Assembly: GCA_020061305.1 (NCBI GenBank)
Contig: JAGUYM010000014.1
Location: forward strand, 183,920 to 235,213
Origin: Candidatus Woesebacteria bacterium
Lineage (GTDB): Bacteria; Patescibacteriota; Microgenomatia; UBA8517
Length of the DNA stretch: 51,294 nt
Direction of reading: 5' to 3'
Shown: piece by piece, positions 2,967 through 25,788 of the stretch
Layout: the number at the start of each line of letters is the position of its first letter
How positions within the stretch are numbered: position 1 is the first letter of the stretch
Translations under genes and position numbers: made by a program
Notes under the pieces: generated by a model
Databases searched by the model: none
The model's input: the letters and a program-made list of their open reading frames with translations, nothing else
What the model was told of the DNA's origin: nothing

Positions 2967-3755
2967 ATGTTGTGGCTAAAATATAAATTACTGTACTTTT
3001 TAACATCTTTAGTTGTAATATCAGCAGGTGTTTTTGGATATTTTAAATGGGAGTTAAATCTTGGTCTAGATTTCACAGGTGGTGCAGTTGGAGAATACAA
3101 AAATGATTTTGGTGAGGTAAAAAAATTTGAAAAGGCGGGCATAAACGAAGAAGAAGCCATTAAGTTAAGAGAAGAATATAAAAAAAATGGATTTAAAGAG
3201 ATTAAATTTGAAATGGTGGGGCCAACAATTGCTCCTGATTTGGTTAAAAAAACAGTACATGCTTTAAGTTTATCATCAGCTTTAATTTTGATTTGGATAT
3301 CAATTCAATTTAGAAGTATTAAGTTTGGAGTGTCGGCAATTCTTGCCATGATTCATGATTCGATTGTATTAATAGGAAGTTTTTCTTTGTTGGGCCATTT
3401 TTTTGATGCTCAAGTTGATTTCCTTTTTGTAACTGCAATTCTTACAATATTATCTTTCTCTGTCCATGACACAATTGTTGTTTTTGATAGAATCAGAGAG
3501 AAACAAAAAAGAGAACTTGGAAGTTTAGAGGAACTATCTAATAAAGCAATTACTGAAACGATGGTTAGAAGTCTAAATAATTCTTTTACAATAATATTTA
3601 TGTTAGTGTCACTTATGCTTTTGGGTGGAGAAACAATTCGTTGGTTTGCCGTAGCCTTATTAATCGGTACCATCTCCGGCACCTACTCTTCTCCATTTGT
3701 AGCAGTACCATTACTTGTCATTTTCGACAAAATTTTTAGAAAGAAAGTCAACTAA
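2967..3755 (+). CDS. secF: Protein translocase subunit SecF (compact)
   Basis: GLDFTGG, VGPTI, HDSI, SVHDTIVVFDRIRE, GTYSSPFVA; follows secD. Confidence 0.95.
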   Translation: MLWLKYKLLYFLTSLVVISAGVFGYFKWELNLGLDFTGGAVGEYKNDFGEVKKFEKAGINEEEAIKLREEYKKNGFKEIKFEMVGPTIAPDLVKKTVHALSLSSALILIWISIQFRSIKFGVSAILAMIHDSIVLIGSFSLLGHFFDAQVDFLFVTAILTILSFSVHDTIVVFDRIREKQKRELGSLEELSNKAITETMVRSLNNSFTIIFMLVSLMLLGGETIRWFAVALLIGTISGTYSSPFVAVPLLVIFDKIFRKKVN

Positions 3756-5072
3756 AATTTCCCTTTCATTTGGTAGCATCTTGTTTTCTACTTTTTCAAA
3801 AATTTTTTCTAAAACCTCACCCACTTTTGGTCCACTTGGGATACCTAGAATCTCCATTACGTCTTTACCATTTATTTTTAAGTCCTTAATTGAGAATGGT
3901 TGTTTTTGAACTACAATAAGTCTTTTTTTGAATTCTTCTAAACGCCAGCTAGTTTCTTTTGCTCCACCCCCTAGCCTATCAGCAACTCTAAGGTTGAGCA
4001 TGTCCTCAATGTTTTCAATCCCAACGTTTCTAATAAACCTTCTTATGGCGGAATCAGTTTGCCTTTCATCAACAGTAAATTGATGAAATCTAACAAGTTT
4101 AATAAACTTATCCTTTTCTGCATTAGAAAATCTAAGCCTATCAGCAATATTTTTAGCAATCTTTGTAGAAACCATTTCGTGATTGTAAAAGGTGATAAAT
4201 CCTTCTGTTGATTTTCTATATGTTTGGGGTTTACCTATATCATGAATTAAGGTTGCAAATTTTGTTACTGGATCTTTAGATTTGCAAAATTTAAGACTCA
4301 TCAAAAGATGAGTTCCGACATCATAAATATGGTGTCTATTTGGGGATTTTTGATCAACTCCAAAACACTTGACAAGTTCAGGTAAAATTTCTTGCATCAG
4401 TCCTGATTCTTTCAAATGAACTATGCCAGAATATGCATTTTCATTTTTTAATATCTTAAATAACTCGTCCTTTATTCTTTCTTTGGCGATTTTATTGATT
4501 AAACTGGCGTTTGTTTTAATTGCCTCAAAAGTATTTGCTTCGATTTCAAAATTTAATTCCCCTGCAATTCTTACAGCCCTAAGCATTCGAAGCGCATCTT
4601 CTTGAAATCTTTCATTTGGATCACCCACTGCTTTTAGTGTTTTATTTTTTAAATCTTTTTGTCCATCAAAAAAATCGTGAACTGTGATCTGTGAACCGTG
4701 AACTGATAATGCCAAGGAGTTAATGGTGAAATCGCGTCTTTTTAAATCGTTTTCAAGTGTTTCTCCCCAAACTACTTTATCAGGCCTTCTATTGTCTGAA
4801 TATCCATATTCTGTTCTGTATGTTGTTATTTCGAATGGTTTATCAAACCCATCAACAACAAATCCAACGGTTCCAAATTTATTGTCGTAGAATCCCTCTG
4901 GTAATACTTTTAATATTTCATCAGGTGTTGCGTTTGTTGTAAAATCCCAGTCATAAACAATTTTTCCCATCAATAAATCTCTTACGGCTCCGCCCACAAT
5001 ATAAATTCCAAAGCCTTCTGATTTAAATTTAGATAAAAGACCTTTAACTTCATCAGGAATATTTAGATTCAT
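3711..5072 (-). CDS. cca: tRNA nucleotidyltransferase (CCA-adding enzyme family) with HD domain
   Basis: VGGAVRDLL, DWDFTT, DLKRRDFTIN, EDALRMLRAVR, HDIGKP. Confidence 0.88.
   Translation of the reverse strand: MNLNIPDEVKGLLSKFKSEGFGIYIVGGAVRDLLMGKIVYDWDFTTNATPDEILKVLPEGFYDNKFGTVGFVVDGFDKPFEITTYRTEYGYSDNRRPDKVVWGETLENDLKRRDFTINSLALSVHGSQITVHDFFDGQKDLKNKTLKAVGDPNERFQEDALRMLRAVRIAGELNFEIEANTFEAIKTNASLINKIAKERIKDELFKILKNENAYSGIVHLKESGLMQEILPELVKCFGVDQKSPNRHHIYDVGTHLLMSLKFCKSKDPVTKFATLIHDIGKPQTYRKSTEGFITFYNHEMVSTKIAKNIADRLRFSNAEKDKFIKLVRFHQFTVDERQTDSAIRRFIRNVGIENIEDMLNLRVADRLGGGAKETSWRLEEFKKRLIVVQKQPFSIKDLKINGKDVMEILGIPSGPKVGEVLEKIFEKVENKMLPNEREILVDFLSKNFVENDK
4677..4704 (-). repeat. Degenerate 7-mer tandem array inside cca
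   Basis: Coding strand AGTTCAC GGTTCAC AGATCAC AGTTCAC. Confidence 0.75.
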
Positions 5073-5076
5073 ATGT

Positions 5077-5086
5077 TAATATTATA
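5077..5086. promoter_or_regulatory. Overlapping divergent -10 boxes for cca and recJ
   Basis: Minus TATAAT 5086-5081, 8 nt before ATG 5072; plus TAATAT 5077-5082, 8 nt before ATG 5091. Confidence 0.5.
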
Positions 5087-5090
5087 CAGT

Positions 5091-6674
5091 ATGAAATGGG
5101 ATGTATTGTATGGTTCGCCGATTACAAATCACAAATCACTAATTACTGCGTTACTTGAGAATAGAGGCTTGAAATCAAAAAAAGAAATTGATGAATTTTT
5201 AAATCCAACTAAAAATATAAAACTTGATATACCTAAAAATATTCTTAAAAGACTTAACGAGGCAAAAAAGAATAAAGAAAAAATTGTAATTTTTGGTGAT
5301 TATGATTGTGATGGTGTTTGTGCAACTGCAATTCTTTGGGAAACAATGTATAAAGAAGGTTTTGATGTAATGCCATACATTCCAGATAGATTTGAAGAAG
5401 GATATGGAATCAAAAGTACAACTTTTGCAAACTCTAAATTTCAAAATCTAAATCCGAATTTAATAATCACAGTCGATAATGGAATCGTTGCTTACGATGC
5501 CATTAAAGAGGCTAAAAAAAGAGGAATTGATGTAATTGTTGTTGACCATCATGCACTTGGAAACAAGAAGCTTACTACACCCTACATACTGCATTCTACT
5601 ATTGTATGTGGTAGTGCTCTCGCTTGGTTTTTATCCCGCGAACTGTCCACTGTTCATCGTTCACTGTTCACGGGTTTAGATCTTGTAGCCCTTGGGACCG
5701 TCGCTGATCAAATTCCACTTTTGGGCATAAACAGATCAATTGTTAAGTATGGACTAGAAGAATTAAACAATACAAAAAGACTAGGCTTAAGACAAATTGT
5801 AAAAGATGTGGGGGTTCAAAATGTTGGTGTTTATGAAATTGGTTTTATGATTGCTCCAAGAATAAATGCTTCTGGAAGACTTCTTCATGCAATTGATGCC
5901 TTAAGACTTCTTTGCACAAAAGACCCCAAAAAAGCAAAAGAATTATCAAAAAAATTAAGCGAGACAAATATTGAAAGGCAAAAAATTGTTGAGGGGGTGG
6001 TTGCAAGAGTACTGGAAGAAACGAGTGATGGAGATAAAATCATGGTAATAAGCGGTGATTATCATGAAGGCGTGATAGGGCTTGCATCAGGAAAAGTAAC
6101 CGAGAAATATTACAAGCCTTCAATAGTTTTATCAGTTGGAAAAGAAGTATCAAAAGCTTCAGCGCGGTCAATTAATGGTTTTAACATAATTGAGGCTATT
6201 AAAGAAACAAATTTAATTTTAGAAGGTGGAGGGCATCCTATGGCTGCCGGGTTTAGTATAGAAACCAGTAAAATTTCAGAATTTAAAACAAAAATAAATG
6301 AAATATCAAAAAAATATCTAACAGATGAGATTTTGGAAAAAAAATTAAAAATAGATTTGGAATTGGATTTTAAATATATAAATATTAAATTAATTGAAAT
6401 TTTAAAAAAGCTTGAGCCATTTGGATATGGTAATAGTCAACCAGTTTTTACTACAAAAAAAGTAAAAGTTGTTGAAAGTAAAACAGTGGGAAGTGATGGA
6501 AAACATCTAAAATTAAAATTAGAACAAAATGGAATTAAATTTGATGGAATATGGTTTAATAATAACCAAACGCCAATAATCAACAATCAATACGACATTG
6601 CATTCACGATTGAAGAAAACATTTGGAATAACAAAACCTTAATTCAATTGAAAATTAAAGATATCAAATACTAA
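5091..6674 (+). CDS. recJ: ssDNA exonuclease RecJ (start re-called from 5073 to 5091)
   Basis: GDYDCDG, TVDNG, DHH, TVAD, APRINASGR, GGHPMAAG, LEPFGYGN. Confidence 0.95.
   Translation: MKWDVLYGSPITNHKSLITALLENRGLKSKKEIDEFLNPTKNIKLDIPKNILKRLNEAKKNKEKIVIFGDYDCDGVCATAILWETMYKEGFDVMPYIPDRFEEGYGIKSTTFANSKFQNLNPNLIITVDNGIVAYDAIKEAKKRGIDVIVVDHHALGNKKLTTPYILHSTIVCGSALAWFLSRELSTVHRSLFTGLDLVALGTVADQIPLLGINRSIVKYGLEELNNTKRLGLRQIVKDVGVQNVGVYEIGFMIAPRINASGRLLHAIDALRLLCTKDPKKAKELSKKLSETNIERQKIVEGVVARVLEETSDGDKIMVISGDYHEGVIGLASGKVTEKYYKPSIVLSVGKEVSKASARSINGFNIIEAIKETNLILEGGGHPMAAGFSIETSKISEFKTKINEISKKYLTDEILEKKLKIDLELDFKYINIKLIEILKKLEPFGYGNSQPVFTTKKVKVVESKTVGSDGKHLKLKLEQNGIKFDGIWFNNNQTPIINNQYDIAFTIEENIWNNKTLIQLKIKDIKY
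5119..6590 (+). repeat. Five separate degenerate 7-mer arrays inside recJ: 5119-5146, 5427-5461, 5572-5599, 5644-5671, 6563-6590
   Basis: e.g. CGATTAC AAATCAC AAATCAC TAATTAC; TGTCCAC TGTTCAT CGTTCAC TGTTCAC; TAACCAA ACGCCAA TAATCAA CAATCAA. Confidence 0.7.
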
Positions 6675-8424: not shown

Positions 8425-9363
8425 ATGGAAAAAAGTAATCTTTTGTATTTATCATTACTTTCTTTTGTTTTAATTTCAACTTCTGCTATTTCAATTTCAT
8501 CACAGACCGATTATTTTAAAATTGATACGCAAAAAGTTTTAAAAGAAGTCAATGCGAAGTTTTTAGGTAAAAAGTACTCGGACTTGCCCGTCTTAAAAGA
8601 TGGGGCGACTTTTCCTATAATTTCGGCCCAATCTGCAGTTGCAATAGACCTAGTATCAGGTGTTTCATTATATGAAAAAGACCCAAACAAAAAACTACTT
8701 CCTGCTTCAACTACAAAAATAATGACTGCCTTAGTTGCTCTTGATACATATGATTTGGATCAAATATTAAAAGTTGGAAAAATTAATGTAGTAGGGCAAA
8801 AAATGGGTTTAGTTTGGGGAGAGGAGATAAAATTTATTGACTTATTAAAGGGCTTGTTAATTTTTTCGGCAAACGATGCGGCTGAAGTTTTGGCTTTAAA
8901 TCATCCAGCAGGGAGAGATGTGTTCATAGGTTTAATGAATAAAAAAGCACAGGACTTGGGTTTAAAAGATACCCATTTTGAAAATCCTACGGGGCTGGAT
9001 GGAAACGGTGGTCAGTATTCAACAACTAGAGATTTGGTAATTCTTTCCAAACAGGCAATAAAAAATCCCTTTTTTAAAGAAATTGTTGCAATTAAAAATG
9101 AAACAGTTAAGAGCGTTGATGGAAAATATATTCATAGGCTTATAAACATAAACAAACTATTGGGAGAAGTGGACGGGGTTTATGGAGTAAAAACAGGTTG
9201 GACAGAAAATGCAAGAGAAAATTTAGTTTCATATTTAGAAAGAGATAATAGAAAAATAATGATAGCAGTACTAGGAAGCAGTGACAGATTTGGAGAAACT
9301 AAAGAACTAATCAAATGGATATTTGATAATTACTCTTGGGAAGAAGTAAAAATTCCTAACTAG
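8425..9363 (+). CDS. D-alanyl-D-alanine carboxypeptidase (peptidase S11)
   Basis: PASTTKIMT (SxxK), SAN (SxN), KTG. Confidence 0.9.
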   Translation: MEKSNLLYLSLLSFVLISTSAISISSQTDYFKIDTQKVLKEVNAKFLGKKYSDLPVLKDGATFPIISAQSAVAIDLVSGVSLYEKDPNKKLLPASTTKIMTALVALDTYDLDQILKVGKINVVGQKMGLVWGEEIKFIDLLKGLLIFSANDAAEVLALNHPAGRDVFIGLMNKKAQDLGLKDTHFENPTGLDGNGGQYSTTRDLVILSKQAIKNPFFKEIVAIKNETVKSVDGKYIHRLININKLLGEVDGVYGVKTGWTENARENLVSYLERDNRKIMIAVLGSSDRFGETKELIKWIFDNYSWEEVKIPN

Positions 9364-10437: not shown

Positions 10438-11753
10438 TGAATCAAAATAAAGTTAGAACTAGATTTGCACCCAGCCCAACAGGTTTTTTACATATTGGTG
10501 GTTTAAGAACTGCACTTTACGCATATCTCTTGGCAAAACATGAAGGGGGAGATTTTATACTTCGGATCGAAGACACTGATCAAAAAAGAGAAGTTGAAGG
10601 TGCAACTGAAGCGCTCCAAGAAACTTTAAAAAAATTTGGTTTAATTTGGGACGAATTTTACAAGCAATCAGAAAGACTTGAAAAATATAAAAGTGCCGCA
10701 GAAAAATTAGTTAGGGAAAGTTATGCTTTTTATTGCAATTGCAAACCTAAAAATGCAAAAGTAGAAGGGTTTTCTAAGGAATTGCGCGACCCATGTAGAG
10801 ATAAAAAGTTGACCAGTGGAGCAATAAAATTGAGGGTTCCAGATGGGCAGATTGTTAGATATCATGATTTTGTTCACAAGAAAGAAATATCTTGGAAAAC
10901 TGATGAAGTTTATGACGCCACACTTTTAAAATCAGATGGATTCCCAACTTACCATTTAGCTGTAGTAGTTGATGATACTGACATGAAGATAAGTCATATT
11001 ATAAGAGGACATGATTGGCTTCCCTCAACCCCAATACATCTTTTAGTTTTTGATTATTTGGTTAGTAAAAGGCCCGAGATTGGGCATTTAACAGATATTT
11101 TGTCAACTGAAACTGGCAAAAAACTTTCAAAAAGACGAGATTCTGTTTTTGTAGAACAATTCTTAGAAGAAGGTTATCTTTCAGAGGCACTTCTCAATTT
11201 TGTATTACTTTTAGGTTGGGCTCCCAAAAATAATAAAGAAATGTTTACTCTCACTGAGATGGTTAAAAGTTTTGACATAAACGGATTTCAGGACGCTAAT
11301 CCTAAGTTTTTTAGAGATAAACTTGATTGGTTTAATGGACAGTATATTCGTCAACTGAAAGTTGGCGACTTAAATTCTAAATTCCAAACTCTAAATTCTA
11401 AATTTAAAGCATTAAAGACAGAAACACAAATAGAAATTACAAAACTGGTTAAAGATAGAATTAGTAAGTTAACTGATATAAATACACTGGCCAAGTTTTT
11501 TTGGGAGACACCTGAAGTTGACAAGAGTCTTTTGGGCAATAATTATAAACTTCATCTTGCGAAAGCTATCGAGGCAATTGAAAACGATAAAGATTTGATG
11601 GAAGTTGTAAAGGAAAACAATTTTAAAACTGGAGACTTTTTTATGGATTTGAGAATTGCCATAACAGGCTCAAAGTTTACCCCTCCAATAAATGAATCAA
11701 TTGAAATTTTAGGAAAAGATGAAACATTAAAAAGACTTAAAAAAGTTATATGA
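10437..11753 (+). CDS. gltX: Glutamyl-tRNA synthetase
   Basis: RFAPSPTGFLHIGG, LRIEDTD, DGFPTYH, KLSKR. Confidence 0.95.
   Translation: MNQNKVRTRFAPSPTGFLHIGGLRTALYAYLLAKHEGGDFILRIEDTDQKREVEGATEALQETLKKFGLIWDEFYKQSERLEKYKSAAEKLVRESYAFYCNCKPKNAKVEGFSKELRDPCRDKKLTSGAIKLRVPDGQIVRYHDFVHKKEISWKTDEVYDATLLKSDGFPTYHLAVVVDDTDMKISHIIRGHDWLPSTPIHLLVFDYLVSKRPEIGHLTDILSTETGKKLSKRRDSVFVEQFLEEGYLSEALLNFVLLLGWAPKNNKEMFTLTEMVKSFDINGFQDANPKFFRDKLDWFNGQYIRQLKVGDLNSKFQTLNSKFKALKTETQIEITKLVKDRISKLTDINTLAKFFWETPEVDKSLLGNNYKLHLAKAIEAIENDKDLMEVVKENNFKTGDFFMDLRIAITGSKFTPPINESIEILGKDETLKRLKKVI
11370..11404 (+). repeat. 7-mer array inside gltX
   Basis: TTAAATT CTAAATT CCAAACT CTAAATT CTAAATT. Confidence 0.85.
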
Positions 11754-12993: not shown

Positions 12994-13335
12994 ATGGATA
13001 CTCATTACAAAGGTTTAATTTGGACCAATCATGCAATCCATAGAATGCGAGAAAGAGGAATATCACAGGGTGATGCGTGGGCTACATGGAACAGACCGGA
13101 GCAAAGTAGATACGCTGCTTCAAAAGGTGCGTGGGTGTATTATAGAACTTGGCCCGCTTCGACTGGCAAGCCGGGTGAATATATCAAGATCGAAGTTGTT
13201 GCAAAACGAAACGAGAAGAAACAATGGGTAATTATATCCGTTTGGAGCAATGAAGTAAAAAATACCAACAATCAGAGTCCTCAAAAATCACTTTTTCTTA
13301 CCCTTTTTAGAAATATTTTCTCGATTAAGAACTAA
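12994..13335 (+). CDS. DUF4258-family protein
   Basis: WTNHAIHRMRERGIS motif. Confidence 0.7.
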   Translation: MDTHYKGLIWTNHAIHRMRERGISQGDAWATWNRPEQSRYAASKGAWVYYRTWPASTGKPGEYIKIEVVAKRNEKKQWVIISVWSNEVKNTNNQSPQKSLFLTLFRNIFSIKN

Positions 13336-13530
13336 ATATATCAGAGGAAGGATGCCTAAAGAATTGACTACCAAGAGTGCGATGAACCATACATTTTGAT
13401 TCTTTTTTGCCGATTTCCAAAGGGCAAATCCTCGAAGTATTAAATCAATTAATGAAAACAAGGTCAACCCTCCAAAAAACCATCTCTTATCATAATCATA
13501 TCCCCAGTATCCCCATTTTCCGTACATCAT
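13288..13530 (-). CDS. DUF5652-family small membrane protein
   Basis: LRGFALWKSAKKNQNVWFIALLVVNSLGILPLIY. Confidence 0.8.
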   Translation of the reverse strand: MMYGKWGYWGYDYDKRWFFGGLTLFSLIDLILRGFALWKSAKKNQNVWFIALLVVNSLGILPLIYLVLNRENISKKGKKK

Positions 13531-13536
13531 TAGTTC

Positions 13537-13579
13537 ATCATATTAGATAGTTGACAAGATTTCAATAGATAACTAGAAT
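13537..13579. promoter_or_regulatory. Overlapping divergent sigma70 promoters, both apparently leaderless
   Basis: Plus TTGACA(13551)-17-TAGAAT(13574), ATG 8 nt later; minus TTGAAA-17-TATGAT(13542-13537), ATG 6 nt later. Confidence 0.75.
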
Positions 13580-13587
13580 GGATTTAG

Positions 13588-14274
13588 ATGACTGCCAAAA
13601 GTAAGACTTTTAAATATCTTCCGATCCTTGCAATTACTGCGTTTGTTTTGAGTTTTGCTGTTGTCAATTATAACAATTCTCAAGTTTTGAATACTTCGGA
13701 GGGGATGGTTTTAAGTGATAGGGACGAGAATTCTGAGGAGATTGAAAAGAGGAACGAAGAAAGAGTTGAAGCAACAAAAAGAGAAAATGAACAAAAGTCA
13801 GAAGAAGCTAAAAAAAGAAATGAAGTTAGGAAAGAGGTAAGAAATAGATCGGAGATTAGAGTTAGAGAGGTAGAAAGTGAAAGCGAGGATTCAGATCAAG
13901 ACGAGTTTGAATTAGAATCTGAAGGAGTAAAAGCAAGAACAGGTTTTCCGTTGAAATTGGATACCAAAACAAATGAGTTAATGGTGGCTGGCCCCAGTGG
14001 TGAGACCAAGGATGTTGCAGTTTTACCTGACAAAGCTGTTGAAAATCTCTTGGAAAATAAAAGGATAGAGTTAATAGATGAACCTTTAGATTTAGTTGAA
14101 AATAAAGATAAAAGTGAACTTGAATACAGAGCAGAGGCAGTTGAAGAGAAAAGATTTTTAGGATTGTTTAAAATTAGGCTTCAAAAAGAATTTAGAATTT
14201 CGTCAGAAACGGGTGAAGTAGATGAAATTCCTACAACGGGATTAAGAAGACTTCTTGATCTTCTCTCTTTCTAA
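13588..14274 (+). CDS. Exported hypothetical protein
   Basis: N-terminal hydrophobic helix, charged coiled region, strong promoter. Confidence 0.75.
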   Translation: MTAKSKTFKYLPILAITAFVLSFAVVNYNNSQVLNTSEGMVLSDRDENSEEIEKRNEERVEATKRENEQKSEEAKKRNEVRKEVRNRSEIRVREVESESEDSDQDEFELESEGVKARTGFPLKLDTKTNELMVAGPSGETKDVAVLPDKAVENLLENKRIELIDEPLDLVENKDKSELEYRAEAVEEKRFLGLFKIRLQKEFRISSETGEVDEIPTTGLRRLLDLLSF

Positions 14275-15213
14275 TATCCGAACAACTTCAGTAATATGCT
14301 CTGTATCCATAAGTTCAGCTCTTAAGGTTGTTGCTCCATCAAAACCTTTTATATACATTTTAAAAAACCTTTTAAGTGTGGCAAAATGCTTGCTATCACC
14401 ATATATGTGATGATGTAAGTTGGTGTGTTTGAGGGCAAGGTCAAGGAAATCATTAACTTTATGATCTATGTTATTATTTCCAAATATCCATGGGTTTTTG
14501 AGTATCCCTCTTGCAATCATTACTCCATCAACTCCATATTGTTTATGTTTTAAAACAGCTTCTTTTTTTGATAAAACATCCCCATTTCCAATAACCAATG
14601 TATTGGGAGAGATTTTATTTTTAATTTTTGTAATCTCACCAATTGCGTCCCAGTTAGCCTGACCATCTGACATTTGTGAGGGTGTTCTACAATGAACAGT
14701 AAGTGCGTCTATTTTTTGTTCAAGTAAAAATTGTACCCAGTCCTGATACGAGATAATTTTATTACCCAATCTTGTCTTAATGCTTAATGGAATTTTATTT
14801 TTGAGCCCTTCTTTTGTTGCATTAATTATTTCTTTAACTAGATCAAAATTACCAATGCATCCGGCTCCACCGCCAGATTCTACAACACTTCTGTGAGGGC
14901 AACCCATGTTTATATCTACCCCATCAAATCCCAAATTGAGACAGATTTGTGCTGATCTGAAGAAATTTTGGGGATTAGACCCCCAAATTTGGGCGACTAT
15001 TGGTCTTTGGCTCTTACTAAATTGAAGTCTTTTTATGGTTTCTGGATAACCTTTTTCAGATGTGAGCCCGTCAGTATTCGTAAATTCTGTAAAAAACACA
15101 TCAGGACGAGGTAAATATCTCGAAACTATTTCTCTAAACACATAATCGGTTACATTTTCCATTGGTGCCAAAACAATAAATGGTCTGGTAAGCTTGGTCC
15201 AGAAATTAATCAT
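14242..15213 (-). CDS. dus: tRNA-dihydrouridine synthase
   Basis: LAPMENVTD, DINMGCP, SIKTRLG, TVHCRT, GNGD, GVMIARG. Confidence 0.92.
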   Translation of the reverse strand: MINFWTKLTRPFIVLAPMENVTDYVFREIVSRYLPRPDVFFTEFTNTDGLTSEKGYPETIKRLQFSKSQRPIVAQIWGSNPQNFFRSAQICLNLGFDGVDINMGCPHRSVVESGGGAGCIGNFDLVKEIINATKEGLKNKIPLSIKTRLGNKIISYQDWVQFLLEQKIDALTVHCRTPSQMSDGQANWDAIGEITKIKNKISPNTLVIGNGDVLSKKEAVLKHKQYGVDGVMIARGILKNPWIFGNNNIDHKVNDFLDLALKHTNLHHHIYGDSKHFATLKRFFKMYIKGFDGATTLRAELMDTEHITEVVRILEREKIKKSS

Positions 15214-15279
15214 GATGTTTGTATTATAGCCGACTTTTGGCTATATATTTAAATCAAATACCTGATATAATGATGATAG

Positions 15280-15618
15280 ATGGGGAACTTTAATAGAGAT
15301 AGAAATTCAAGGGTTGGAAGATTTAGTAGTAACAATCGTGGAGATAGGCAGATGTTTAAAACAGTTTGTAGCAATTGTGGTAAGGATTGCCAGGTTCCAT
15401 TTAAGCCAACGGGAGATAAACCCGTTTATTGTAGCGAGTGTTTTGAAAAAATTGGTGGAAGAAGTGAAAGGAAATCTTCTGATAGATCAAGACTCAGAGG
15501 AGACAGTGGATTTAACGATATTAACATCAAATTAGACAGAATATTAAGTTTACTTGAACCAAAAGAACCAAAACCAAAAAAATCCAGCAAAAAAGTAGTT
15601 TCAGAAGAAAAGGTGTAA
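15280..15618 (+). CDS. CxxC-x17-CxxC zinc-finger protein
   Basis: CSNCGKDCQVPFKPTGDKPVYCSECF; TGATATAAT 8 nt before ATG. Confidence 0.88.
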   Translation: MGNFNRDRNSRVGRFSSNNRGDRQMFKTVCSNCGKDCQVPFKPTGDKPVYCSECFEKIGGRSERKSSDRSRLRGDSGFNDINIKLDRILSLLEPKEPKPKKSSKKVVSEEKV

Positions 15619-15718
15619 AAGTTTAATAGACTCAAATTTTAGTGGTATTAGTTCTGTATTTTCACTGTATATAAAACAGTTGAAAGAAATTCGAATGTTG
15701 TCTTGTATAATACGGTAG

Positions 15719-16198
15719 ATGAAGAAAATAATAGTTGTTTCCTTGGTTTTATTGGTGTTATCAATTGTCGGTTACTTTTTTTATAATTATTCAAAAAAAA
15801 CCAACTCTACTGATTTAACTGAAACCAGCCTAGTTGCACCAGGTAGACCTGCAGATATAACAGGATTGATAGTTTCACAATTAGGAAATGAGGTTGTTGT
15901 AGCCAAAGAAATTGGCAAAGTTATTTTATCTGAAGAGGAACAGGCTATTAAAAAAGCAGAATCACAAAAATTGACTCCGGAAGAACGGTCTGCTTTAAAA
16001 GCCCAAGAGAGTGCCAATTTAACAACTGAAGATATCAAATTAATAATTCCGGTAGGAACTACCATAGCAAAAGGTGCTGGCGATGCTAGCGGAAAACAAA
16101 TAATTGCAGATATTGCAGAACTTACAAAGGGCACATATATTTCGGTTTGGTTAGATCAAAACAATAATATAGAATATGTCAAAATTAAACAAATATAA
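15719..16198 (+). CDS. Membrane-anchored hypothetical protein, first gene of ABC operon 1
   Basis: Signal-anchor; overlaps adaptor gene. Confidence 0.75.
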   Translation: MKKIIVVSLVLLVLSIVGYFFYNYSKKTNSTDLTETSLVAPGRPADITGLIVSQLGNEVVVAKEIGKVILSEEEQAIKKAESQKLTPEERSALKAQESANLTTEDIKLIIPVGTTIAKGAGDASGKQIIADIAELTKGTYISVWLDQNNNIEYVKIKQI

Positions 16199-17195
16199 GT
16201 TTTATATAGTAGGAGGCTTAATTTTATTATTGGGAGTATCTTGGTATTTAATATCTAAAAACAAAACTGTAGTTGAACCGTTGCAAACCGCAAAAGTTGT
16301 AAAAGGAGACCTTAGTATTTCATTTTCTATCGATGGTAAATTGGTCGGAGATATTTACGAACCCACATTTGTCTTGGGTGGAAAAGTAAACCAAGTTTTT
16401 GTTAAAGAAGGGGATTATGTTAAGGCAGGTCAATGGATAGCAACTCTTGATACGGAAGAAGCCCAAAAGAATCTTGAGAAATTATTGCGTGATTATTCAA
16501 GTAAAAGAAATGATTTTGAAGAAATAACCGGGGTAACTTATGTAAACACAGTAGTAACTGATACGATACGAAGGATCTTGGAAAAAAATCAATGGGATTT
16601 GGAAAAAGCGGTAATTGATGTAGAACTTAAAAACATAGCTCTTAAACAATCAAGGTTGATTGCGCCAGTGTCAGGGATCGTGGCAAACCTAAATATTAAA
16701 ATTGGAGATGTCGTCAGCACACAAAACCAAACCCCGATTGTTACCATAGTAAAGTCTAATATTTTTTCCTTTGTTGCATATGCAGAGGAAAGTGATGCTT
16801 TAAAAATCGATAAAGATCAAATAGTAAAAATTTCTTTTGAGGCATACGACGACAAAGATTATCTTGCCAACAGGTATTTTTTGTCTCCTGTTGCCGAGAT
16901 TGATAGTAATGGATTAACTACCTACAAAGTTACTGCATATCTGGATACACCAAAGGATGTAAAACTAATGGATGGCATGGAAGGAAGTATCTTGTTTATT
17001 ACTAAGGAAGTCAAAGATGTAATTACAATCCCGAACAAGGCAGTTTACCGAGAAAACAATAAGTCTTATGTTGATGTTATAAACGATCACAAGGAAATCA
17101 GTAAAGTTGAAATTGAAACCGGATTTACAGATGGTAAATCGGTTGAAGTTACAAAAGGTTTAACCATTGACCAAAACGTTATAACCAGAAAATAA
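16176..17195 (+). CDS. MacA-like periplasmic adaptor
   Basis: GKVNQVFVKEGDYVKAGQ, LIAPVSGIV, IETGFTDG. Confidence 0.88.
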   Translation: MSKLNKYKFYIVGGLILLLGVSWYLISKNKTVVEPLQTAKVVKGDLSISFSIDGKLVGDIYEPTFVLGGKVNQVFVKEGDYVKAGQWIATLDTEEAQKNLEKLLRDYSSKRNDFEEITGVTYVNTVVTDTIRRILEKNQWDLEKAVIDVELKNIALKQSRLIAPVSGIVANLNIKIGDVVSTQNQTPIVTIVKSNIFSFVAYAEESDALKIDKDQIVKISFEAYDDKDYLANRYFLSPVAEIDSNGLTTYKVTAYLDTPKDVKLMDGMEGSILFITKEVKDVITIPNKAVYRENNKSYVDVINDHKEISKVEIETGFTDGKSVEVTKGLTIDQNVITRK

Positions 17196-17203
17196 AATGT
17201 ATC

Positions 17204-17878
17204 ATGCCTGTTATTACTCTTACATCTGTTAAAAAAAGTTACTTCATTAAAAATATCGAATATCCAATTTTAAAAGGCATAAATTTAACGGTTAATAAAG
17301 GAGAATTTGTGGCTTTAATGGGACCTTCTGGATCTGGAAAATCAACCCTTTTAAATATAATCGGTGGATTAGACAAATCAACTGAGGGGAAATATATTAT
17401 AAATGAAAAATTAGTATCGAACTTATCTTCAGATGAACTGGCCGATATCAGAAACATTTATATAGGTTTTATTTTTCAAAATTTTAATTTAATTCCCACA
17501 CTTTCAACGCTTGATAATGTGGCTTTGCCAAGTTTTTATTCAGGAGATGTAAATTATAAAAAAGCAGAAGAGTTACTTAGTATGGTGGGGCTTTCGGATA
17601 GACTGAGTAATAAACCCAATGAACTTTCGGGAGGCCAAAGACAAAGGGTGGCTATTGCAAGATCTTTAATTAATGATCCTGAATTTATCTTAGCCGATGA
17701 ACCTACGGGCAATCTTGATAGTAAGACCGGGGAGGAAATAATGAAACTAATAGTTTCCCTTAAAAAAGATTACGGTAAAACCATTTTAATGGTTACACAT
17801 GATCCACATTTAGCTAAACTAACCGACAGAATAATTTACCTTAAAGATGGTTATATTACGAAGAAAAAAAACGTATGA
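17204..17878 (+). CDS. ABC ATPase, LolD/MacB type
   Basis: GPSGSGKST, LSGGQRQRVAIAR, ILADEPTGNLD. Confidence 0.95.
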   Translation: MPVITLTSVKKSYFIKNIEYPILKGINLTVNKGEFVALMGPSGSGKSTLLNIIGGLDKSTEGKYIINEKLVSNLSSDELADIRNIYIGFIFQNFNLIPTLSTLDNVALPSFYSGDVNYKKAEELLSMVGLSDRLSNKPNELSGGQRQRVAIARSLINDPEFILADEPTGNLDSKTGEEIMKLIVSLKKDYGKTILMVTHDPHLAKLTDRIIYLKDGYITKKKNV

Positions 17879-19080
17879 CAAAATATAGTTTCTATATAAA
17901 ATTGTTTCGGTTGTCTTGGCAATCATTAAGGTCCAATGTTTTTAGATCTTTTTTAACGACATTGGGAATTATAATTGGAGCAGCGACCATTATTATAGTT
18001 GTTGCGCTTGGTGAGGGAGCAAAAAGAGATATTGAAGCACAATATTCAAACATGTCTGTTACAACAATTTTAATTAATGGTCCATCAACTGAGGGTTCCC
18101 AATCAAAATTGTCTGTTGATGACATACCTGCAATACAGGCTATTAGTACAGTTTCTGATGCCGTTCCGATGCTTACCGGAAAAGTAAATATCTCGACAGC
18201 AAATAACACTGCAAGTTTTAATGTCGTTGGAACCTATCCTAATTTTTCCGATGTGGCGAATCTGACATACGAAAGGGGGGGTTTTTTTGACCAGACGGAT
18301 GAAGATGATCACACAAAGGTTGTGATTCTTGGGGCGACTGTGGCAGAAGAAATATATGGCACCCGCAATCCCGACGTCTTGGGCCAAAGTATAGTATTGG
18401 GAAAGAAAGAATTTGAAATAGTGGGTATAGCAAAGTATAAGGGTGGTGCTTTTGGACCAATTTCAATTGATGAAAGTGTTTTTACACCTTATTCCTCAAG
18501 TTACAGATATATCTTAGGAAAAAATGGTAAATTTTCCTTTAATGTAAATGCTCAAAGTGTAGATCTTTTAGAGGAAACAATGTCAAGTTTAACTAAAGTT
18601 TTGCGTGAAGAACATAAAATAGCGGCAAACACACCGGAAGACTTTAAATTAAAAGATATGGGTGCAACGGTTGCATCTGCACAAGGCTCTTCACAGACAA
18701 TGGCAATTCTTCTTGGGGCTGTGGGATTTATAGTTCTTCTTGTGGGTGGAATTGGGATTATGAATATTATGTATGTTACTGTTTCGGAAAGAACAAAAGA
18801 GATTGGAATAAGAAAAGCGATTGGAGCTAAGGATAATCATGTTCTGACGCAGTTTTTGTTTGAAGCATTTATACTAACAGGTGTTGGTTATTTGATTGGG
18901 ACAATATCTTCTATAGGAATCTATTTTATTCTGCTTTCTTTGGGAGTAAAAATAGTTTTTGTTTGGTGGAGCCTAGTTCTTTCATTTATTATTACTTTTA
19001 CAGTTGGAATGTTTTTTGGCTATTACCCTGCCAAAAAAGCTGCAGCTCTCGACCCAATAGATGCACTGCGATACGAATAA
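17875..19080 (+). CDS. MacB/FtsX-like ABC permease
   Basis: FRSFLTTLGIIIG, GGIGIMNIM..VSERTKEIGIRKAIGA, DPIDALRYE. Confidence 0.93.
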   Translation: MTKYSFYIKLFRLSWQSLRSNVFRSFLTTLGIIIGAATIIIVVALGEGAKRDIEAQYSNMSVTTILINGPSTEGSQSKLSVDDIPAIQAISTVSDAVPMLTGKVNISTANNTASFNVVGTYPNFSDVANLTYERGGFFDQTDEDDHTKVVILGATVAEEIYGTRNPDVLGQSIVLGKKEFEIVGIAKYKGGAFGPISIDESVFTPYSSSYRYILGKNGKFSFNVNAQSVDLLEETMSSLTKVLREEHKIAANTPEDFKLKDMGATVASAQGSSQTMAILLGAVGFIVLLVGGIGIMNIMYVTVSERTKEIGIRKAIGAKDNHVLTQFLFEAFILTGVGYLIGTISSIGIYFILLSLGVKIVFVWWSLVLSFIITFTVGMFFGYYPAKKAAALDPIDALRYE

Positions 19081-19936: not shown

Positions 19937-21104
19937 CTAGCTCGCCACCTGTTTTGCGGGTTTTAGTTTGTTTACTGCATATAGTGCAGTTATCACCAAA
20001 AACACAGTTGCTAAAAAATATGGAGATTTGGTTCCAATTTGTGCGTAGAAGAAAGTTCCCAGGAGAGGACCGAATAACCTAGCAACCGCTGCTACCGACT
20101 GGTTCATACCTGCGATACTACCTTGTTCTTTTTCAGGTGTCAGTTTCGAAATATAGCCTGTAATTACTGGCCTTGATATCCCACTTGCTAAAGCAAGAAG
20201 GGTTACGGCGATAAGAAGCATGGCTACACTAGTACCCACAGCTATCAGTCCTAATGCTACAGCCATAAGGATAATAGTGATAATGATCAATCTATGCTCT
20301 GAAAACAAATTCTCAATTCTTTTAAGCAGAAATAATTGCACCACTATTCCCACTAAACCCAAATAAGCAAAAATTAGTCCGTTAGTTCTTGCAGATAAAT
20401 TAAGACTGTGTTCGGTGTAAAGGGCAAATGTACCTTGCATAAGCGAGAAGGAGAACATGGTCATAAAAAAGATGCTTAGAAGAGTCCCAAGTTCAGGATG
20501 CGTTAATGCATCAAAAAAGTCTTTTACCCCAAAAATCTGGTTTTCCTTTTTCTTAACCTCATTATCTTGTCTGCTTTTAATATATGATTCTGGGAGAAAG
20601 AAATAAGCCAGAACAACCGCAATGAGTGCAACTGCCCCTGCTACGAATGCTGGCACGGCATATCCATACACCGAAAGCAATCCGCCAACAGCAACTAAAG
20701 GCAGCCATCATAATACCCATTCCTTGAGTCCTGTTTTCTTTGGTAGTTATATCTGCAATATATGCCTGGGCAGTTGATATGTTGCCACCGGTAATACCGT
20801 CAATAATTCTGGACATAAATAAGACTGGAATAGTTTTGGCAGCTCCAAGTAAACCAAAAGAGGCCGCAGTTCCAAGAATGGAAATGACGAGGACGGGACG
20901 TCTGCCGAATTTATCTGACAATTTACCTAAAATGGGAGCTGAAATTATTTGGAACAAGGAATATGTAGCAGTTAAAAGGCCGATAGTTATTGCTCCTGCC
21001 CCGAAACTTTCAACATAATACGGCAAAAGCGGCAAAATAATGCCAAAACCCAATAGGTTTACAAATACTATTAAAAATATAATCCAAATTCGACTGTCTT
21101 TCAT
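19937..21104 (-). pseudogene. TetA/DHA1-type MFS transporter broken by a short deletion and frameshift near 20694
   Basis: Frame 1 has GKLSDKFGRRP and ends GMGIMMAAFS; frame 2 resumes AVGGLLSVYG; the usual LGFxxGP of motif C is missing. Confidence 0.85.
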
Positions 21105-22841: not shown

Positions 22842-24059
22842 TTATTCATATCTTAGTGCCGCAATCGGTGAGAGTAGAGATGCGCGTCTTGCTGGAGCAA
22901 TTCCAAAAATTATTCCGACTCCTGCAGAAACAACAAAAGCAAGAATAATTGACCACGCGGTAACAGTCATCGGTATAAAATTGTTTAACAAGAGTGCACC
23001 GCCGCTACCGAGTAAGATTCCAATGATCCCACCGCCTACGGACAAAAAGACTGCCTCGATCAAAAACTGGGTTAAAATCACTTCAGGTGTAGCCCCCAGG
23101 GCTTTCCTGAGACCTATCTCTCTTGTTCTTTCTGTTACAGACACGAGCATTATATTCATAATGCCGATACCTCCGACTAAAAGTGAAATGGCAGCGATGC
23201 CACCCAAAGCGATTGTGAGGGTATCAAGAATAGAAGAAACGGTCGATAAGATTTCCTTCTGATCGATTACAGTAAAGTCTTCCTCGTCGTGTCGTTTTAA
23301 CATTACCGCTTCTATCAATGGAACAGCTGAGGCAACCTCATCACTTGAACTTACTTGGGTGAATATTATGCTGATATTATCCAAGCCAAATTGGCGTTGA
23401 GCAGTAGTTATTGGGACAAAAATTTTATCGTCGGAAGTTAAGCTGCCTTGACCACCTTGTTCTTTCATTACGCCCATAACAAGATAGCGGTAGTCTCCAA
23501 CTTTGATCTTCTCTCCAACCGGATTTTGGTTTCCAAATAATTCATGGGCGACAGTGTGTCCTAAAATCGTCACTTTCCTTCCACTGTTGACCTCAGATTG
23601 CGTAAAAAAACTACCAGTTTCGAATTCTGAGCTCCTTATATTTATATAATTTTGTGTAGTGCCGATAATTTGTCCGGAAACAGTTTCACTCTTATAGCTG
23701 GCAAGGCCTGGAGCCATGACTACGGCAGCAGTATCTTTGATTTGGGGTAAACTTCTTTCTATCTCTTCGGCATCCCTTAGTTCCAACTTAGAAGCTGCTA
23801 TTGAAGAAAAAGCGCCACTTGCAGCTCCTCCACTAGCCCCTGTTTGTTCAATATCAATATCACCCGGGACAACCATAATGAGGTTAGAGCCCATATCTTG
23901 CATTTGTCCTGTTATATAATCTTTAAGTCCTGAACCAACGGAAACCAGCAAAATTACGGCCGCAACACCAATAATTACCCCAAGCGCGGTCAAGAAGGAG
24001 CGCGATCTGTTTACAATTAGGGATTTGGTTGCGATTCTAATAAGTTGTTTTAGTTGCAT
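22842..24059 (-). CDS. MacB/FtsX-like ABC permease (operon 2)
   Basis: RSFLTALGVIIG, GGIGIMNIMLVSVTERTREIGLRKALGA. Confidence 0.93.
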   Translation of the reverse strand: MQLKQLIRIATKSLIVNRSRSFLTALGVIIGVAAVILLVSVGSGLKDYITGQMQDMGSNLIMVVPGDIDIEQTGASGGAASGAFSSIAASKLELRDAEEIERSLPQIKDTAAVVMAPGLASYKSETVSGQIIGTTQNYINIRSSEFETGSFFTQSEVNSGRKVTILGHTVAHELFGNQNPVGEKIKVGDYRYLVMGVMKEQGGQGSLTSDDKIFVPITTAQRQFGLDNISIIFTQVSSSDEVASAVPLIEAVMLKRHDEEDFTVIDQKEILSTVSSILDTLTIALGGIAAISLLVGGIGIMNIMLVSVTERTREIGLRKALGATPEVILTQFLIEAVFLSVGGGIIGILLGSGGALLLNNFIPMTVTAWSIILAFVVSAGVGIIFGIAPARRASLLSPIAALRYE

Positions 24060-24060
24060 T

Positions 24061-24741
24061 TTAATTTATTACCTTACCGTCTTTTAATCTGATTATTCTT
24101 TGTGCTTTGTTTGCAATGTTGTCATCGTGGGTGACAAGGATAACTGTCCTGCCTTGTTGGTGAAGTTTTTTAAATATTTCCATGACTTCTACACCCGATT
24201 TTGAATCCAAATTTCCCGTTGGTTCATCGGCAATGATTATTGAGGGGTCTGTAATCAGCGCACGGGCAATAGCTACTCTTTGTTGTTGACCTCCTGAAAG
24301 CTGATTTGGATGATGGTCAAGTCTTTCTCCTAAACCAACTTTCCCTAAAACTTCAGCAGCCTTTTTAGCTATCTGTGAGCTGGTGGTGCCGTTATACAAC
24401 AGAGGAAGACTTACATTATCGAGTGCCGAAGTCCTGGGTAATAAATTAAACTGCTGAAACACAAATCCTATTTTTTTATTTCTGACCTGTGCCAATTGTC
24501 TTTCAGTCATCTGGCTGATTTCTTGATCATCTAAAAGGACTTTACCGGAGGTTGGTGTATCCAAACAGCCAACTATGTGCATTAGGGTTGATTTCCCACT
24601 CCCTGAAGGACCAATAATGGAAACAAACTCACCCTCCATTATTGCAAGAGAAACGTTGTCAAGGGCTTTTACAGATACCCCGTCCATTCGATAAATTTTG
24701 GATACAGTTTCCAATCTGAGTATGTTTTTTGTCTTTGTCAT
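24061..24741 (-). CDS. ABC ATPase, LolD/MacB type
   Basis: GPSGSGKST, LSGGQQQRVAIAR, DEPTGNLD. Confidence 0.95.
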   Translation of the reverse strand: MTKTKNILRLETVSKIYRMDGVSVKALDNVSLAIMEGEFVSIIGPSGSGKSTLMHIVGCLDTPTSGKVLLDDQEISQMTERQLAQVRNKKIGFVFQQFNLLPRTSALDNVSLPLLYNGTTSSQIAKKAAEVLGKVGLGERLDHHPNQLSGGQQQRVAIARALITDPSIIIADEPTGNLDSKSGVEVMEIFKKLHQQGRTVILVTHDDNIANKAQRIIRLKDGKVIN

Positions 24742-24747
24742 TACACA

Positions 24748-25788
24748 TTATTTTTTTTCGTTACCTGGCAGGGCAATTACCTGCCCTTCTTCTAAGCCTT
24801 TAATTATCTCCACTTCAGTCAAAGTGGTTAAACCAACATTAACCTCCTTTTCTATTTTGTTGCCGTCTTCGATGATATAAACAACACTAATACCGTCTTT
24901 TTGTTTTATGTAGTTTCCCGGAATAACCAAAGCATTTTCTCTTTGATCCAGTACAAATTCCACATCGCCACTTAATCCTACTGCCATGTTACTCCCGTTT
25001 GAGTCAAATTGAATCTCAATAGGTATAGTAACTCCTCCTGTGGCAGTTTTGACTCCGGCCTTACCGATATAGGAAACAGTTCCTTCAAAGGTTTCATCAG
25101 GAAAGGCATCAAGAGATATTTTTGCTTTTTGTCCGAGTTTTATTTTACCGTAGTCTATTTCATCCACCTGAGCTGTAAATTTAAACTCTGACACATCAGC
25201 AACAACTATAGTATCCGTTAAAGCAATATTAGCACCGGGAGTAAAGTTATCTGATATCGACACAACAGTTCCGTTAAAGGGTGCGATTAAAGTTGTGTTT
25301 GACAAGGCGTTTCGTGTAGCCAAAACAGCGTTATAGGCATTATCTTTTGCGACTTCGGCGGCAGTCCTTGTTTCCTTTTGAGTGAAAGATTCGTCGTTGT
25401 CATGATCCTTAACGCTATCATAGACCCTATCCAAAGTTGCTTCGGCGGCGCGCAGGTTAGAGTTGGCAATCTGAAGATTGGCATTAAGTTGTACGGCATC
25501 AAGCTGGGCTAGTGATTGCCACTTTTTAACATCTTCACCTTGACTTACCCCAACCCATGCTAGCTTACCAGGAGTATTAAAATGTAGAGTTGCCTGGCTC
25601 TTTCCTTTGATAGATCCTGAGGCTGATATGGTTGAAAATAAATCCTGTCGCACCACTTTTGTAGTTACCATCTCATCGCTATTACCAGTAATCAGGCTTT
25701 TACCAATCAATATGGATAAAGCGACAATAACAAAGATAATAACTTTCCACCTATTTTCTCTAATAAACCGACACATTTTTTTTAGCAT
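24748..25788 (-). CDS. MacA-like periplasmic adaptor
   Basis: GKLAWVGVSQGE, LIAPFNGTV, VDEIDYGKIKLGQ. Confidence 0.88.
   Translation of the reverse strand: MLKKMCRFIRENRWKVIIFVIVALSILIGKSLITGNSDEMVTTKVVRQDLFSTISASGSIKGKSQATLHFNTPGKLAWVGVSQGEDVKKWQSLAQLDAVQLNANLQIANSNLRAAEATLDRVYDSVKDHDNDESFTQKETRTAAEVAKDNAYNAVLATRNALSNTTLIAPFNGTVVSISDNFTPGANIALTDTIVVADVSEFKFTAQVDEIDYGKIKLGQKAKISLDAFPDETFEGTVSYIGKAGVKTATGGVTIPIEIQFDSNGSNMAVGLSGDVEFVLDQRENALVIPGNYIKQKDGISVVYIIEDGNKIEKEVNVGLTTLTEVEIIKGLEEGQVIALPGNEKK

Follow-up and report, generated by a model that had tools for sequence, protein, structure and literature searches.

The stretch of DNA analysed here, hereafter the window, comprises 51,294 nucleotides of contig JAGUYM010000014.1 and stems from an uncultured groundwater bacterium of the Candidate Phyla Radiation (CPR), assigned to Candidatus Woesebacteria. 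It is a gene-dense window of the Microgenomates group with a G+C content of about 34%, and our subject is a set of short arrays of tandem 7-nt units that lie within its coding sequences, above all within recJ, the gene of a single-stranded-DNA (ssDNA) exonuclease. An earlier note, made from the sequence alone, had described five different heptamer arrays inside recJ, each with a consensus of its own, and similar arrays in cca, gltX, secA and two envelope genes. The host gene and the arrays are the following:

5073-6674 (or from the MKW start at 5091), plus strand: recJ, ssDNA exonuclease, 533 aa, intact, host of all five recJ segments
5118-5151, plus strand: recJ site 1, units ATTACAA ATCACAA ATCACTA ATTACT, read as PITNHKSLIT, in the N-terminal coil and the start of a helix
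5427-5462, plus strand: recJ site 2, weak and degenerate, units AACTCTA AATTTCA AAATCTA AATCCGA, read as ANSKFQNLNPNL
5570-5603, plus strand: recJ site 3, moderate, units CTTACTA CACCCTA CATACTG CATTCTA, read as LTTPYILHST
5642-5671, plus strand: recJ site 4, units ACTGTCC ACTGTTC ATCGTTC ACTGTTC AC, read as STVHRSLFT, in a surface loop
6561-6594, plus strand: recJ site 5, weak, units AATAACC AAACGCC AATAATC AACAATC, read as NNQTPIINNQ, in a loop of the OB domain
4673-4709, minus strand: cca array, sense units AGTTCAC GGTTCAC AGATCAC AGTTCAC, read as LSVHGSQITVHDF, in the hypervariable loop after the FTINxLAL motif
11370-11408, plus strand: gltX array, units TAAATTC TAAATTC CAAACTC TAAATTC TAAATT, read as LNSKFQTLNSKFK, in the linker between the catalytic and anticodon-binding domains
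43382-43410, plus strand: secA array, units CAACAGG CAACAGT TAATAGT CAACAGT, in the C-terminal linker before the SEC-C zinc motif
48109-48136, plus strand: degenerate array TAAAGAG TTAAGAA TCAAGAA CGAAGAA in a 229-aa protein of unknown function
50704-50753, plus strand: T-rich array TTTTTAG TTTTAAG TTTTCAG and so on, encoding a signal peptide or N-terminal membrane helix

The host gene is recognizable from its sequence as RecJ, a 5'-3' ssDNA exonuclease of the DHH family. It matches the Pfam domains DHH (E 1.6e-21), DHHA1 (E 1.2e-12) and RecJ_OB (E 7.4e-32), its nearest solved structures are those of RecJ (PDB 8y30, 5f54 and 2zxo; match at E 6e-73), and its AlphaFold model reaches a pLDDT (predicted local distance difference test) of 90.4. 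The residues D76, D78, D135, H159, H160 and D212 are invariant across 48 orthologues and the frame has no internal stop, in line with the earlier note's statement that frame and DHH motifs are intact. The best named genome relative of the gene is found in a metagenome-assembled genome of the Microgenomates group (66% protein identity), followed by Woesebacteria recJ. On the minus strand, cca (3711-5072) stands back to back with recJ, the two starts (5072 against 5073 or 5091) being separated by only 0-18 nt, so that either promoter is necessarily located within the opposite gene; the site-1 array is located 46-79 nt upstream of the divergent cca start codon. Downstream of recJ follow aspS, a D-Ala-D-Ala carboxypeptidase gene, an unknown gene and gltX.

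Arrays were scored by their self-matches after a 7-nt shift (best of 21 positions), and Tandem Repeats Finder was also used; as controls, codons were permuted within genes or shuffled synonymously, with 300 shuffles each for the window and 1000 for recJ. The window contains seven period-7 clusters scoring at least 16/21, compared to 1.14 expected from codon permutation and 1.67 from synonymous shuffling, a count that none of the 300 shuffles of either kind reached. The signal thus lies above codon-preserving background, and in the window no enrichment over shuffles was seen for periods 5, 6 and 8-12. Within recJ, five clusters of at least 14/21 compare with 0.26 expected under codon permutation (five reached in 0/1000) and 1.63 under synonymous shuffling (2/1000). 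As synonymous shuffles destroy the periodicity, it depends on codon choice, indicating a DNA-level signal, as had been claimed, and not a codon or protein effect. The seven strong arrays are spread over six genes within 51 kb and represent at least five unit types. All of them lie inside open reading frames (ORFs) of a compact window with almost no spacers, and all are degenerate, with 78-92% unit matches and at most two identical units in succession. The window's short-period arrays are not strictly 7-mers, since secA also carries an in-frame period-8 array (42402-42439: AAAATACA (AAAACTCC)x3 AAAATAAA); 2 kb upstream of it, a related AAAACTCC/AAAACTCT pair is present in a methyltransferase gene (40370-40405).

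The recJ sites differ in strength. Sites 1 and 4 are individually strong, scoring 17/21 (reached by 1.1% of 1000 synonymous shuffles) and 16/21 (reached by none of 1000), and site 3 is moderate (14/21; 2.8%). Sites 2 (12/21; reached by 73%, hence not significant singly) and 5 (14/21; 24%) are, taken one by one, indistinguishable from noise. The coordinates and peptides in the earlier note were correct for all five segments, two of which do not rise above shuffles by themselves; its further arrays in cca, gltX, secA and two other genes were confirmed. The last of these genes encodes a coiled-coil PcsB-like protein, whose ORF starts at 50688 and continues past the end of the window. That each array has its own consensus holds only in part: the cca unit and the recJ site-4 unit are identical in 6/7 positions, with xGTTCAC on both sense strands, and the gltX array has AATTCTA-type units and the peptide NSKFQ.LN in common with recJ site 2.

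In the AlphaFold model, site 4 forms a surface loop (residues 192-201) with the lowest internal confidence of the chain (pLDDT 77), site 5 an OB-domain loop (495-505) and site 3 a coil (159-171) before a short strand, while sites 1 and 2 fall into coil plus short helices. DNA folding above shuffles was not found for six of the seven window arrays (z -1.9 to +1.0). A small stem at 5634-5679 does fold better than shuffles and is built from conserved codons; a hairpin function for the window arrays, which apart from this stem fold no better than shuffles, was dropped. The arrays occur in identical form in Logan contigs of at least three other metagenomes (X3, X5 and X7) from different studies, bearing in mind that contigs hide rare variants. 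The window arrays are probably old, partly decayed and fixed, with no sign of ongoing change or phase variation, and the notion of an active process finds no support in this genome, as its arrays are degenerate and recur unchanged in those contigs.

For comparison, we assembled about 97 recJ loci from a scan of genome contigs, a scan of metagenome contigs and seven look-ups; locus statistics refer to 1.1 Mb of DNA, made up of the window and the 90 loci from the two scans (L001-L090). In this DNA, arrays scoring at least 17/21 are dominated by period 7 (80 arrays), followed by periods 8 (18), 6 (8), 12 (7), 9 (6) and 10 (4). With a threshold of 16/21, the period-7 arrays number 111; 55 of them are coding and 31 intergenic, and the other 25 sit at gene edges. 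As about 91% of the sampled DNA is in ORFs, arrays are roughly ten times denser outside (5.85 against about 0.5 per 10 kb). Their size is narrowly distributed: 88 of the 111 have four to five units (about 30 nt), with a steep drop beyond five. Of 16 array pairs spaced by no more than 120 nt, 15 are inverted, and hairpins form in those tested; significant DNA folds were obtained in recJ of L025, in cca of L093 and in L078 (z -2.3 to -3.0). The L025 case (3846-3930, recJ loop 190-200) is an in-frame inverted pair, (AAGTATN)n / (NAATACN)n, whose hairpin (z -3.0) is reminiscent of Rickettsia palindromic elements (RPE). A candidate universal unit containing TCAC (window, L018, L029, L031, L091 and L092) was found in 8 arrays compared to about 5 expected over the 111, and was dropped.

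Among the loci, L062 stands apart with 65% G+C and is probably not of CPR origin. It has seven strong heptamer and four octamer arrays in 15.8 kb (for example at 3744-3801, 8802-8870 and 8997-9122), with arrays of 9-10 units within ORFs and one adjacent inverted pair; the heptamer phenomenon is therefore not limited to AT-rich genomes. In the RecJ proteins P0015 and P0033, an extra 'RELT(S/T)(S/T)' follows FLSREL just before the site-4 loop. The conserved SREL codons seem to have been duplicated in tandem there, over 18 nt, which would be an event different in kind from the arrays.

The loops that hold arrays in the window also hold them in relatives. The site-1 family is present at the same position in L093, L096 and L097 and missing from their sister lineages; the site-2 loop (residues 116-133) carries clean arrays in seven relatives, such as KNSKFQIPNSK in L034; cleaner (CTACATC/T)3-4 arrays occupy the orthologous position of site 3 in L002, L011 and L092; the site-4 loop of the window is five codons longer than in L001 and L002; and the site-5 loop is filled by (AATCAAT)n in L095 and, in L093, by (NAGTACA)4 in clean form. 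Given these array-bearing loops, the weak sites 2 and 5 are probably decayed arrays. Outside recJ, arrays with other units are found in the cca loop of L011, L018 and L093, and in the gltX linker of L027, L037 and L078.

Coding arrays are markedly concentrated. recJ accounts for 13% of the DNA and for 32 of the 55 coding arrays, a density of 2.15 per 10 kb compared to 0.27 in other coding DNA (P ~1e-13), and this excess is confined to period 7, periods 4, 5, 6 and 8 being as frequent elsewhere as in recJ. Counted by gene family, there are 32 arrays in 89 recJ genes, six in 33 cca genes and four in 19 gltX genes, corresponding to 2.07, 1.37 and 1.55 per 10 kb, respectively; with densities so similar, an initial view of recJ as uniquely targeted was softened. 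No arrays were detected in aspS (29 genes) and 15 further families with at least six members, in about 254 kb. Arrays constitute 29% of insertion segments in recJ, 15% in cca and 11% in gltX, and none of 176 insertion segments in 11 other families with at least 12 members, 71 of these segments being in aspS. Insertion tolerance thus does not explain the hot spots. Within recJ, the arrays fall into about eight loops, and at each loop the unit differs by lineage; in window residues these are:

116-133: seven arrays in relatives (site 2)
164-177: three arrays (site 3)
189-203: nine arrays, including the window's own (site 4)
249-253: one array
312-325: four arrays
399-412: one array
479-490: four arrays
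496-505: two arrays (site 5)

The matched recJ reading frames of all loci lack internal stops, hence all 32 recJ arrays are in frame. The consequences of translation are visible in the units themselves. When units are read cyclically, a stop triplet turns up in the sense-strand consensus of 27% of coding arrays; for their antisense strand the share is 75%, and among intergenic arrays it is 73% (P ~1e-6), so that 73% of coding units are stop-free as against about 25% of antisense and intergenic ones. In the gltX array of the window, the third unit is CAAACTC, at the very position where TAAATTC would give an in-frame TAA. As stop-bearing units are rare on the sense strand and the offending copy is altered, arrays appear to arise regardless of coding and to be filtered thereafter. 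The earlier proposal that they survive only where tolerated is supported by their location in loops, linkers and a signal peptide.

Units are shared within genomes far more than between them. For arrays more than 300 nt apart, consensus units are identical in 9.2% of pairs from the same locus and in 0.7% of pairs between loci, a 13-fold difference; units within one mismatch make up 26% and 8%, respectively. In L078, AGTTCAA appears at five sites, one each in recJ and gltX, the other three being intergenic or at gene edges; L029 and L040 each repeat one unit at two to three recJ loops, and L093 has units with a GTAC core in both cca and recJ (site 5). With units common to distant sites of one genome, purely local growth cannot yield this pattern.

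Array gain was accessible in one close pair. The relatives search returned no recJ with 70% to 100% protein identity to that of the window, so we studied gain and loss in L093 and L094, whose recJ and cca genes have a nucleotide identity of 88-89%. Three clean arrays are present in L093 and none in L094. The cca loop, YDGEKLI in both L094 and the outgroup L095, is lengthened by 30 nt in L093 through (AAGTACT)5. At recJ site 1, (CTAATCA)4 stands in place of unrelated DNA of equal length, with 23 of 30 nt mismatched and the flanks identical; at site 5, (NAGTACA)4 is again a length-neutral replacement, and the array in L095 represents a third version of equal length. L095 has no array at the cca site or at recJ site 1, and an AGTAC seed at the L093 array sites is absent from both L094 and L095. 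Arrays have thus been gained by insertion or replacement between close relatives, and the missing seed together with the length-neutral replacements indicates that blocks were inserted or exchanged, rather than grown by local slippage. Such an 88%-identical pair, differing by three fresh arrays of which two are length-neutral, offers a contrast able to catch writing or conversion.

The distribution of arrays does not follow the RecJ tree, which we built from 48 orthologues. The site-4 array (xGTTCAC)4 appears in three separate, well-supported lineages, represented by the window, P0017 (L092) and P0095 (L091). Its length and frame are the same in all carriers, with 27 of 33 nt in common with the window, and the sister sequences are short-looped. 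The site-1 peptide ITNH.SLIT requires five to six changes on the tree and the site-5 motif four, and P0002 and P0025, members of different clades, have both the site-4 and the site-5 motif in common. No recent donor of the site-1 array was found among the four carriers, which are 72-83% identical there and 68-75% identical gene-wide.

A possible hint at machinery comes from L060. There, the minus strand encodes, at 13523-13909, a protein of 129 aa that matches PF05635 (E 1e-37) and gives a weak bAvd-like match. Its gene is flanked by inverted arrays at 13500-13546 and 13887-13923, and the unit of these cassette arms recurs in at least six other arrays of the locus. Dense ATGAATT/AGGAATT-type arrays extend over 13218-16298 of this locus, mainly as inverted pairs at gene junctions, and the neighbours of the PF05635 gene are a DUF2283 gene (13294-13500) and a 75-aa ORF. 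A tblastn search of all loci, including the window, with the L060 four-helix-bundle protein retrieved only the query itself, a single query limiting its sensitivity. The link that the earlier note had mentioned, of similar heptamers beside genes for Avd-like four-helix bundles, is realized in one relative and was not found in the window, and we regard the connection of PF05635 to the arrays as a lead, not a result. A cassette with heptamer arms, as seen in L060, was not found among the window ORFs. Candidate features of a diversity-generating retroelement are likewise missing from the window, in which we detected no reverse transcriptase, no Avd and, in repeat scans, no long direct pair; as its arrays are tandem 7-mers and not a pair of template and variable repeats, this candidate was rejected.

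Based on these results, we consider it probable that genome-specific heptamer arrays are written or converted block-wise, filtered by translation, and that recombination between lineages spreads the resulting alleles. Blocks of 7-nt-periodic DNA, mostly of four to five units and about 30 nt, would be inserted into existing sequence or written over it, each block carrying a unit already used by other arrays of the same genome. Translation then acts as a filter: what persists within genes are arrays in a stop-free orientation, placed where a loop, linker or signal peptide tolerates them. An array is there read in all three frames and gives an odd peptide of 7-13 residues, ITNHKSLIT and TVHRSLFT being examples. 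In deep CPR lineages, a small set of loops in recJ, cca and gltX is filled time after time, with units differing by lineage. For the copying step, we infer that one array serves as template for another within the genome, through copying or conversion and possibly in association with PF05635 cassettes with array arms, and recombination between lineages would afterwards spread the loop alleles. We think that both processes, intragenomic writing and inter-lineage recombination, operate. The templated overwriting suggested by the earlier note would fit the L093 replacements and the sharing of units within genomes, with short-patch recombination between lineages as a live alternative; synthesis linked to a reverse transcriptase, also suggested there, finds no support, as the window ORFs include no such enzyme.

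Several points weigh against this reading. The loci were sampled around recJ only. The replaced site-1 patch in L093 spans about 57 nt, is longer than the array and includes synonymous differences, which gives it the appearance of a recombination tract. For site 4 of recJ, a local seed is conceivable, given that the array's opening unit (GAACTGT) shares bases with the conserved Arg-Glu-Leu codons. The hot spots could also stem from a few ancient arrays, inherited and shuffled, instead of repeated targeting. As to machinery, neither a PF05635 gene nor a reverse transcriptase or transposase was found among the window ORFs; the DNA within 10 kb of recJ is free of PF05635 genes in L091, L092 and L097; the cassette is present in just one of about 95 related loci; and no copying enzyme or template was identified among the window ORFs and the sampled loci.

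If old loop alleles with heptamer arrays were merely shuffled between CPR lineages by short-patch homologous recombination, their patchiness would be no sign of writing. This view, which we hold to be unlikely, draws on the site-4 array, identical in length and frame across three RecJ lineages, on the number of changes demanded by sites 1 and 5, on the motifs that P0002 and P0025 share across clades, and on the L093 site-1 patch with its flanking synonymous differences. It leaves the origin of the alleles, their 7-nt periodicity and the matching of units within genomes unexplained, however, and the identity of the carriers at the site-1 array barely exceeds that of the gene as a whole, with no recent donor in sight. 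Moreover, the L093 cca array has the GTAC core of the recJ site-5 array of the same genome.

A stronger version of block-wise writing, in which a dedicated intragenomic process rewrites patches of about 30 nt with the genome's own prevailing heptamer, maybe in connection with PF05635/Avd-like four-helix-bundle cassettes that have heptamer arrays as arms, and with a preference for the recJ, cca and gltX loops, appears quite doubtful to us. RecJ degrades ssDNA intermediates that are needed for repeat rearrangement and for conversion of the oligonucleotide type, as is known from work on ssDNA exonucleases and tandem-repeat stability in Escherichia coli. Loop-altered recJ alleles could for this reason travel together with array gain, and the preference for recJ might not be accidental.

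Local slipped-strand mispairing alone, in which a resident 7-mer is duplicated in place and nothing is copied between sites, is improbable. Slippage is the standard origin of tandem repeats, the conserved codons at site 4 (CGC GAA CTG T..) would supply a potential seed, and degenerate arrays are what one expects once slippage has ended. It does not account for an excess limited to period 7, for a sharp mode at four to five units with no broad tail, or for distant sites of one genome sharing units 13-fold more than different genomes do. In-frame growth would further require steps of 21 nt, while the net differences seen are +12, +15 and +30 nt. For the three fresh arrays of L093, seedless in L094 and L095 and in two cases length-neutral, slippage, the first origin named in the earlier note, is contradicted.

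That the arrays are functional, be it as phase-variation switches of recJ through gain and loss of units or as sites for a nucleic-acid-binding regulator, seems very improbable. Perfect arrays of four to five units do exist inside recJ of L027, L078 and L037, site 1 is close upstream of the divergent cca start, and a regulator has been suggested to bind heptamers located beside start codons (PMC4679880). On the other side, the same loop has different units in different lineages, a misfit for a conserved binding site, and six of the seven window arrays have no significant DNA fold. A phase-variable contingency locus was rejected, as no more than two identical units occur in a row, the contigs of X3, X5 and X7 are identical to the window over the arrays (though contigs hide rare variants), and the frames of all 32 recJ arrays are free of stops.

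The idea that there is no real feature, but chance, AT-rich low complexity or selection on peptides, is refuted for the class as a whole by the window count that no shuffle reached, by the specificity for period 7, by the roughly ten-fold higher density in non-coding and gene-edge DNA and by the loss of sites 1, 3 and 4 upon synonymous shuffling; with the G+C content of 34% in its favour, it keeps some plausibility solely where the segments at 5427 and 6563 are considered one at a time, as they lie within synonymous-shuffle noise.

Two further observations concern the window at large. A transporter of the MFS family on the minus strand (19940-21104) is seemingly split into two overlapping ORFs (20577-21104, 175 aa; 19940-20680, 247 aa), possibly by a frameshift, as a pseudogene or through an assembly error. 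The window also contains two paralogous efflux operons of HlyD, ABC ATPase and MacB-FtsX type, at 16176-19080 (plus strand) and 22842-25788 (minus strand). The second, together with a TetR gene, falls within 19.9-27 kb, where the G+C content is raised (0.38-0.40) and the GC skew reversed; this stretch may be an accessory island.

The recJ segments are best explained as this window's share of lineage-wide heptameric simple-sequence-repeat arrays of the kind known as short tandemly repeated repetitive (STRR) sequences. Mazel and colleagues are said to have described STRR heptamers in 1990 in heterocystous cyanobacteria (Calothrix and Nostoc/Anabaena), and the unit CAACAGT of the secA array equals the reported STRR3 unit. 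Both sets consist of tandem 7-nt units, in several families per genome, dispersed as many short arrays. Our arrays show at least three head-to-tail copies of 7 nt above chance, in dispersed positions and several unit families; the mainly intergenic location typical of STRR sequences does not apply in the window, where all seven arrays are in ORFs, and does hold in the relatives. In contrast to STRR sequences, the setting here is a compact CPR genome, in which all seven window arrays are genic and in frame, with the same loops used across lineages. The excess of heptamers in bacteria has been known since 1990 and 2007; the later date refers to Mrazek et al. (2007), who, as related in PMC4692102, found heptamers in excess among long prokaryotic simple sequence repeats.

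The GGGNATC and GGGGA(C/T)T heptamers of Xanthomonas and Nostoc, whose preference for about four units was ascribed to G-quadruplexes (Rehm et al. 2015, PMC4692102), are over-represented in non-coding DNA, under-represented on the coding strand and often arranged as convergent pairs (PMC4692102). They resemble our arrays in these respects as well as in being dispersed and in preferring about four units. The units here, however, are AT-rich and have no G tracts, and yet show a mode of four to five units, so that the size preference needs an explanation other than G-quadruplexes. AT-rich arrays with the size mode of G-rich ones therefore weaken the G-quadruplex account and point to a block of defined length. 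The TAACTGA direct repeats of marine Beggiatoaceae, cyanobacteria and Bacteroidetes, mostly located just upstream of start codons (MacGregor 2015, PMC4679880), likewise are dispersed heptamer repeats of 2-6 copies with a patchy phylogeny and no known mechanism of transfer. There, one unit dominates, whereas here several units are found, in coding loops.

Cassettes of the 23S rRNA intervening sequence type with PF05635 (S23p, Avd-like) genes are comparable only to L060, where inverted arrays enclose a gene of this family; none was found among the window ORFs, and the recJ arrays of the window are single, not inverted pairs. The RPE reportedly described by Ogata and colleagues in 2000 are said to be palindromic, 100-150 bp long and to have a family consensus. 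They resemble our arrays as selfish-looking in-frame repeats in surface loops of essential proteins whose function is kept. The arrays of the window differ in measuring about 30 nt, in being 7-periodic and mostly non-palindromic, and in having lineage-specific units. They do occupy loops; six of the seven window arrays form no hairpin, hairpins being obtained in L025 recJ, L093 cca and L078, and there is no common consensus beyond the unit.

For the annotation and modelling of CPR proteins, this implies that odd loop peptides of 7-13 residues in essential enzymes are repeat-derived and not lineage signals; as their distribution is not tree-like, they can mislead trees. Our literature search found no paper on heptamer arrays in Patescibacteria or at shared hot spots in protein loops. 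The arrays are a known repeat class in an undescribed setting, with units that are specific to a genome at sites that several genomes have in common.

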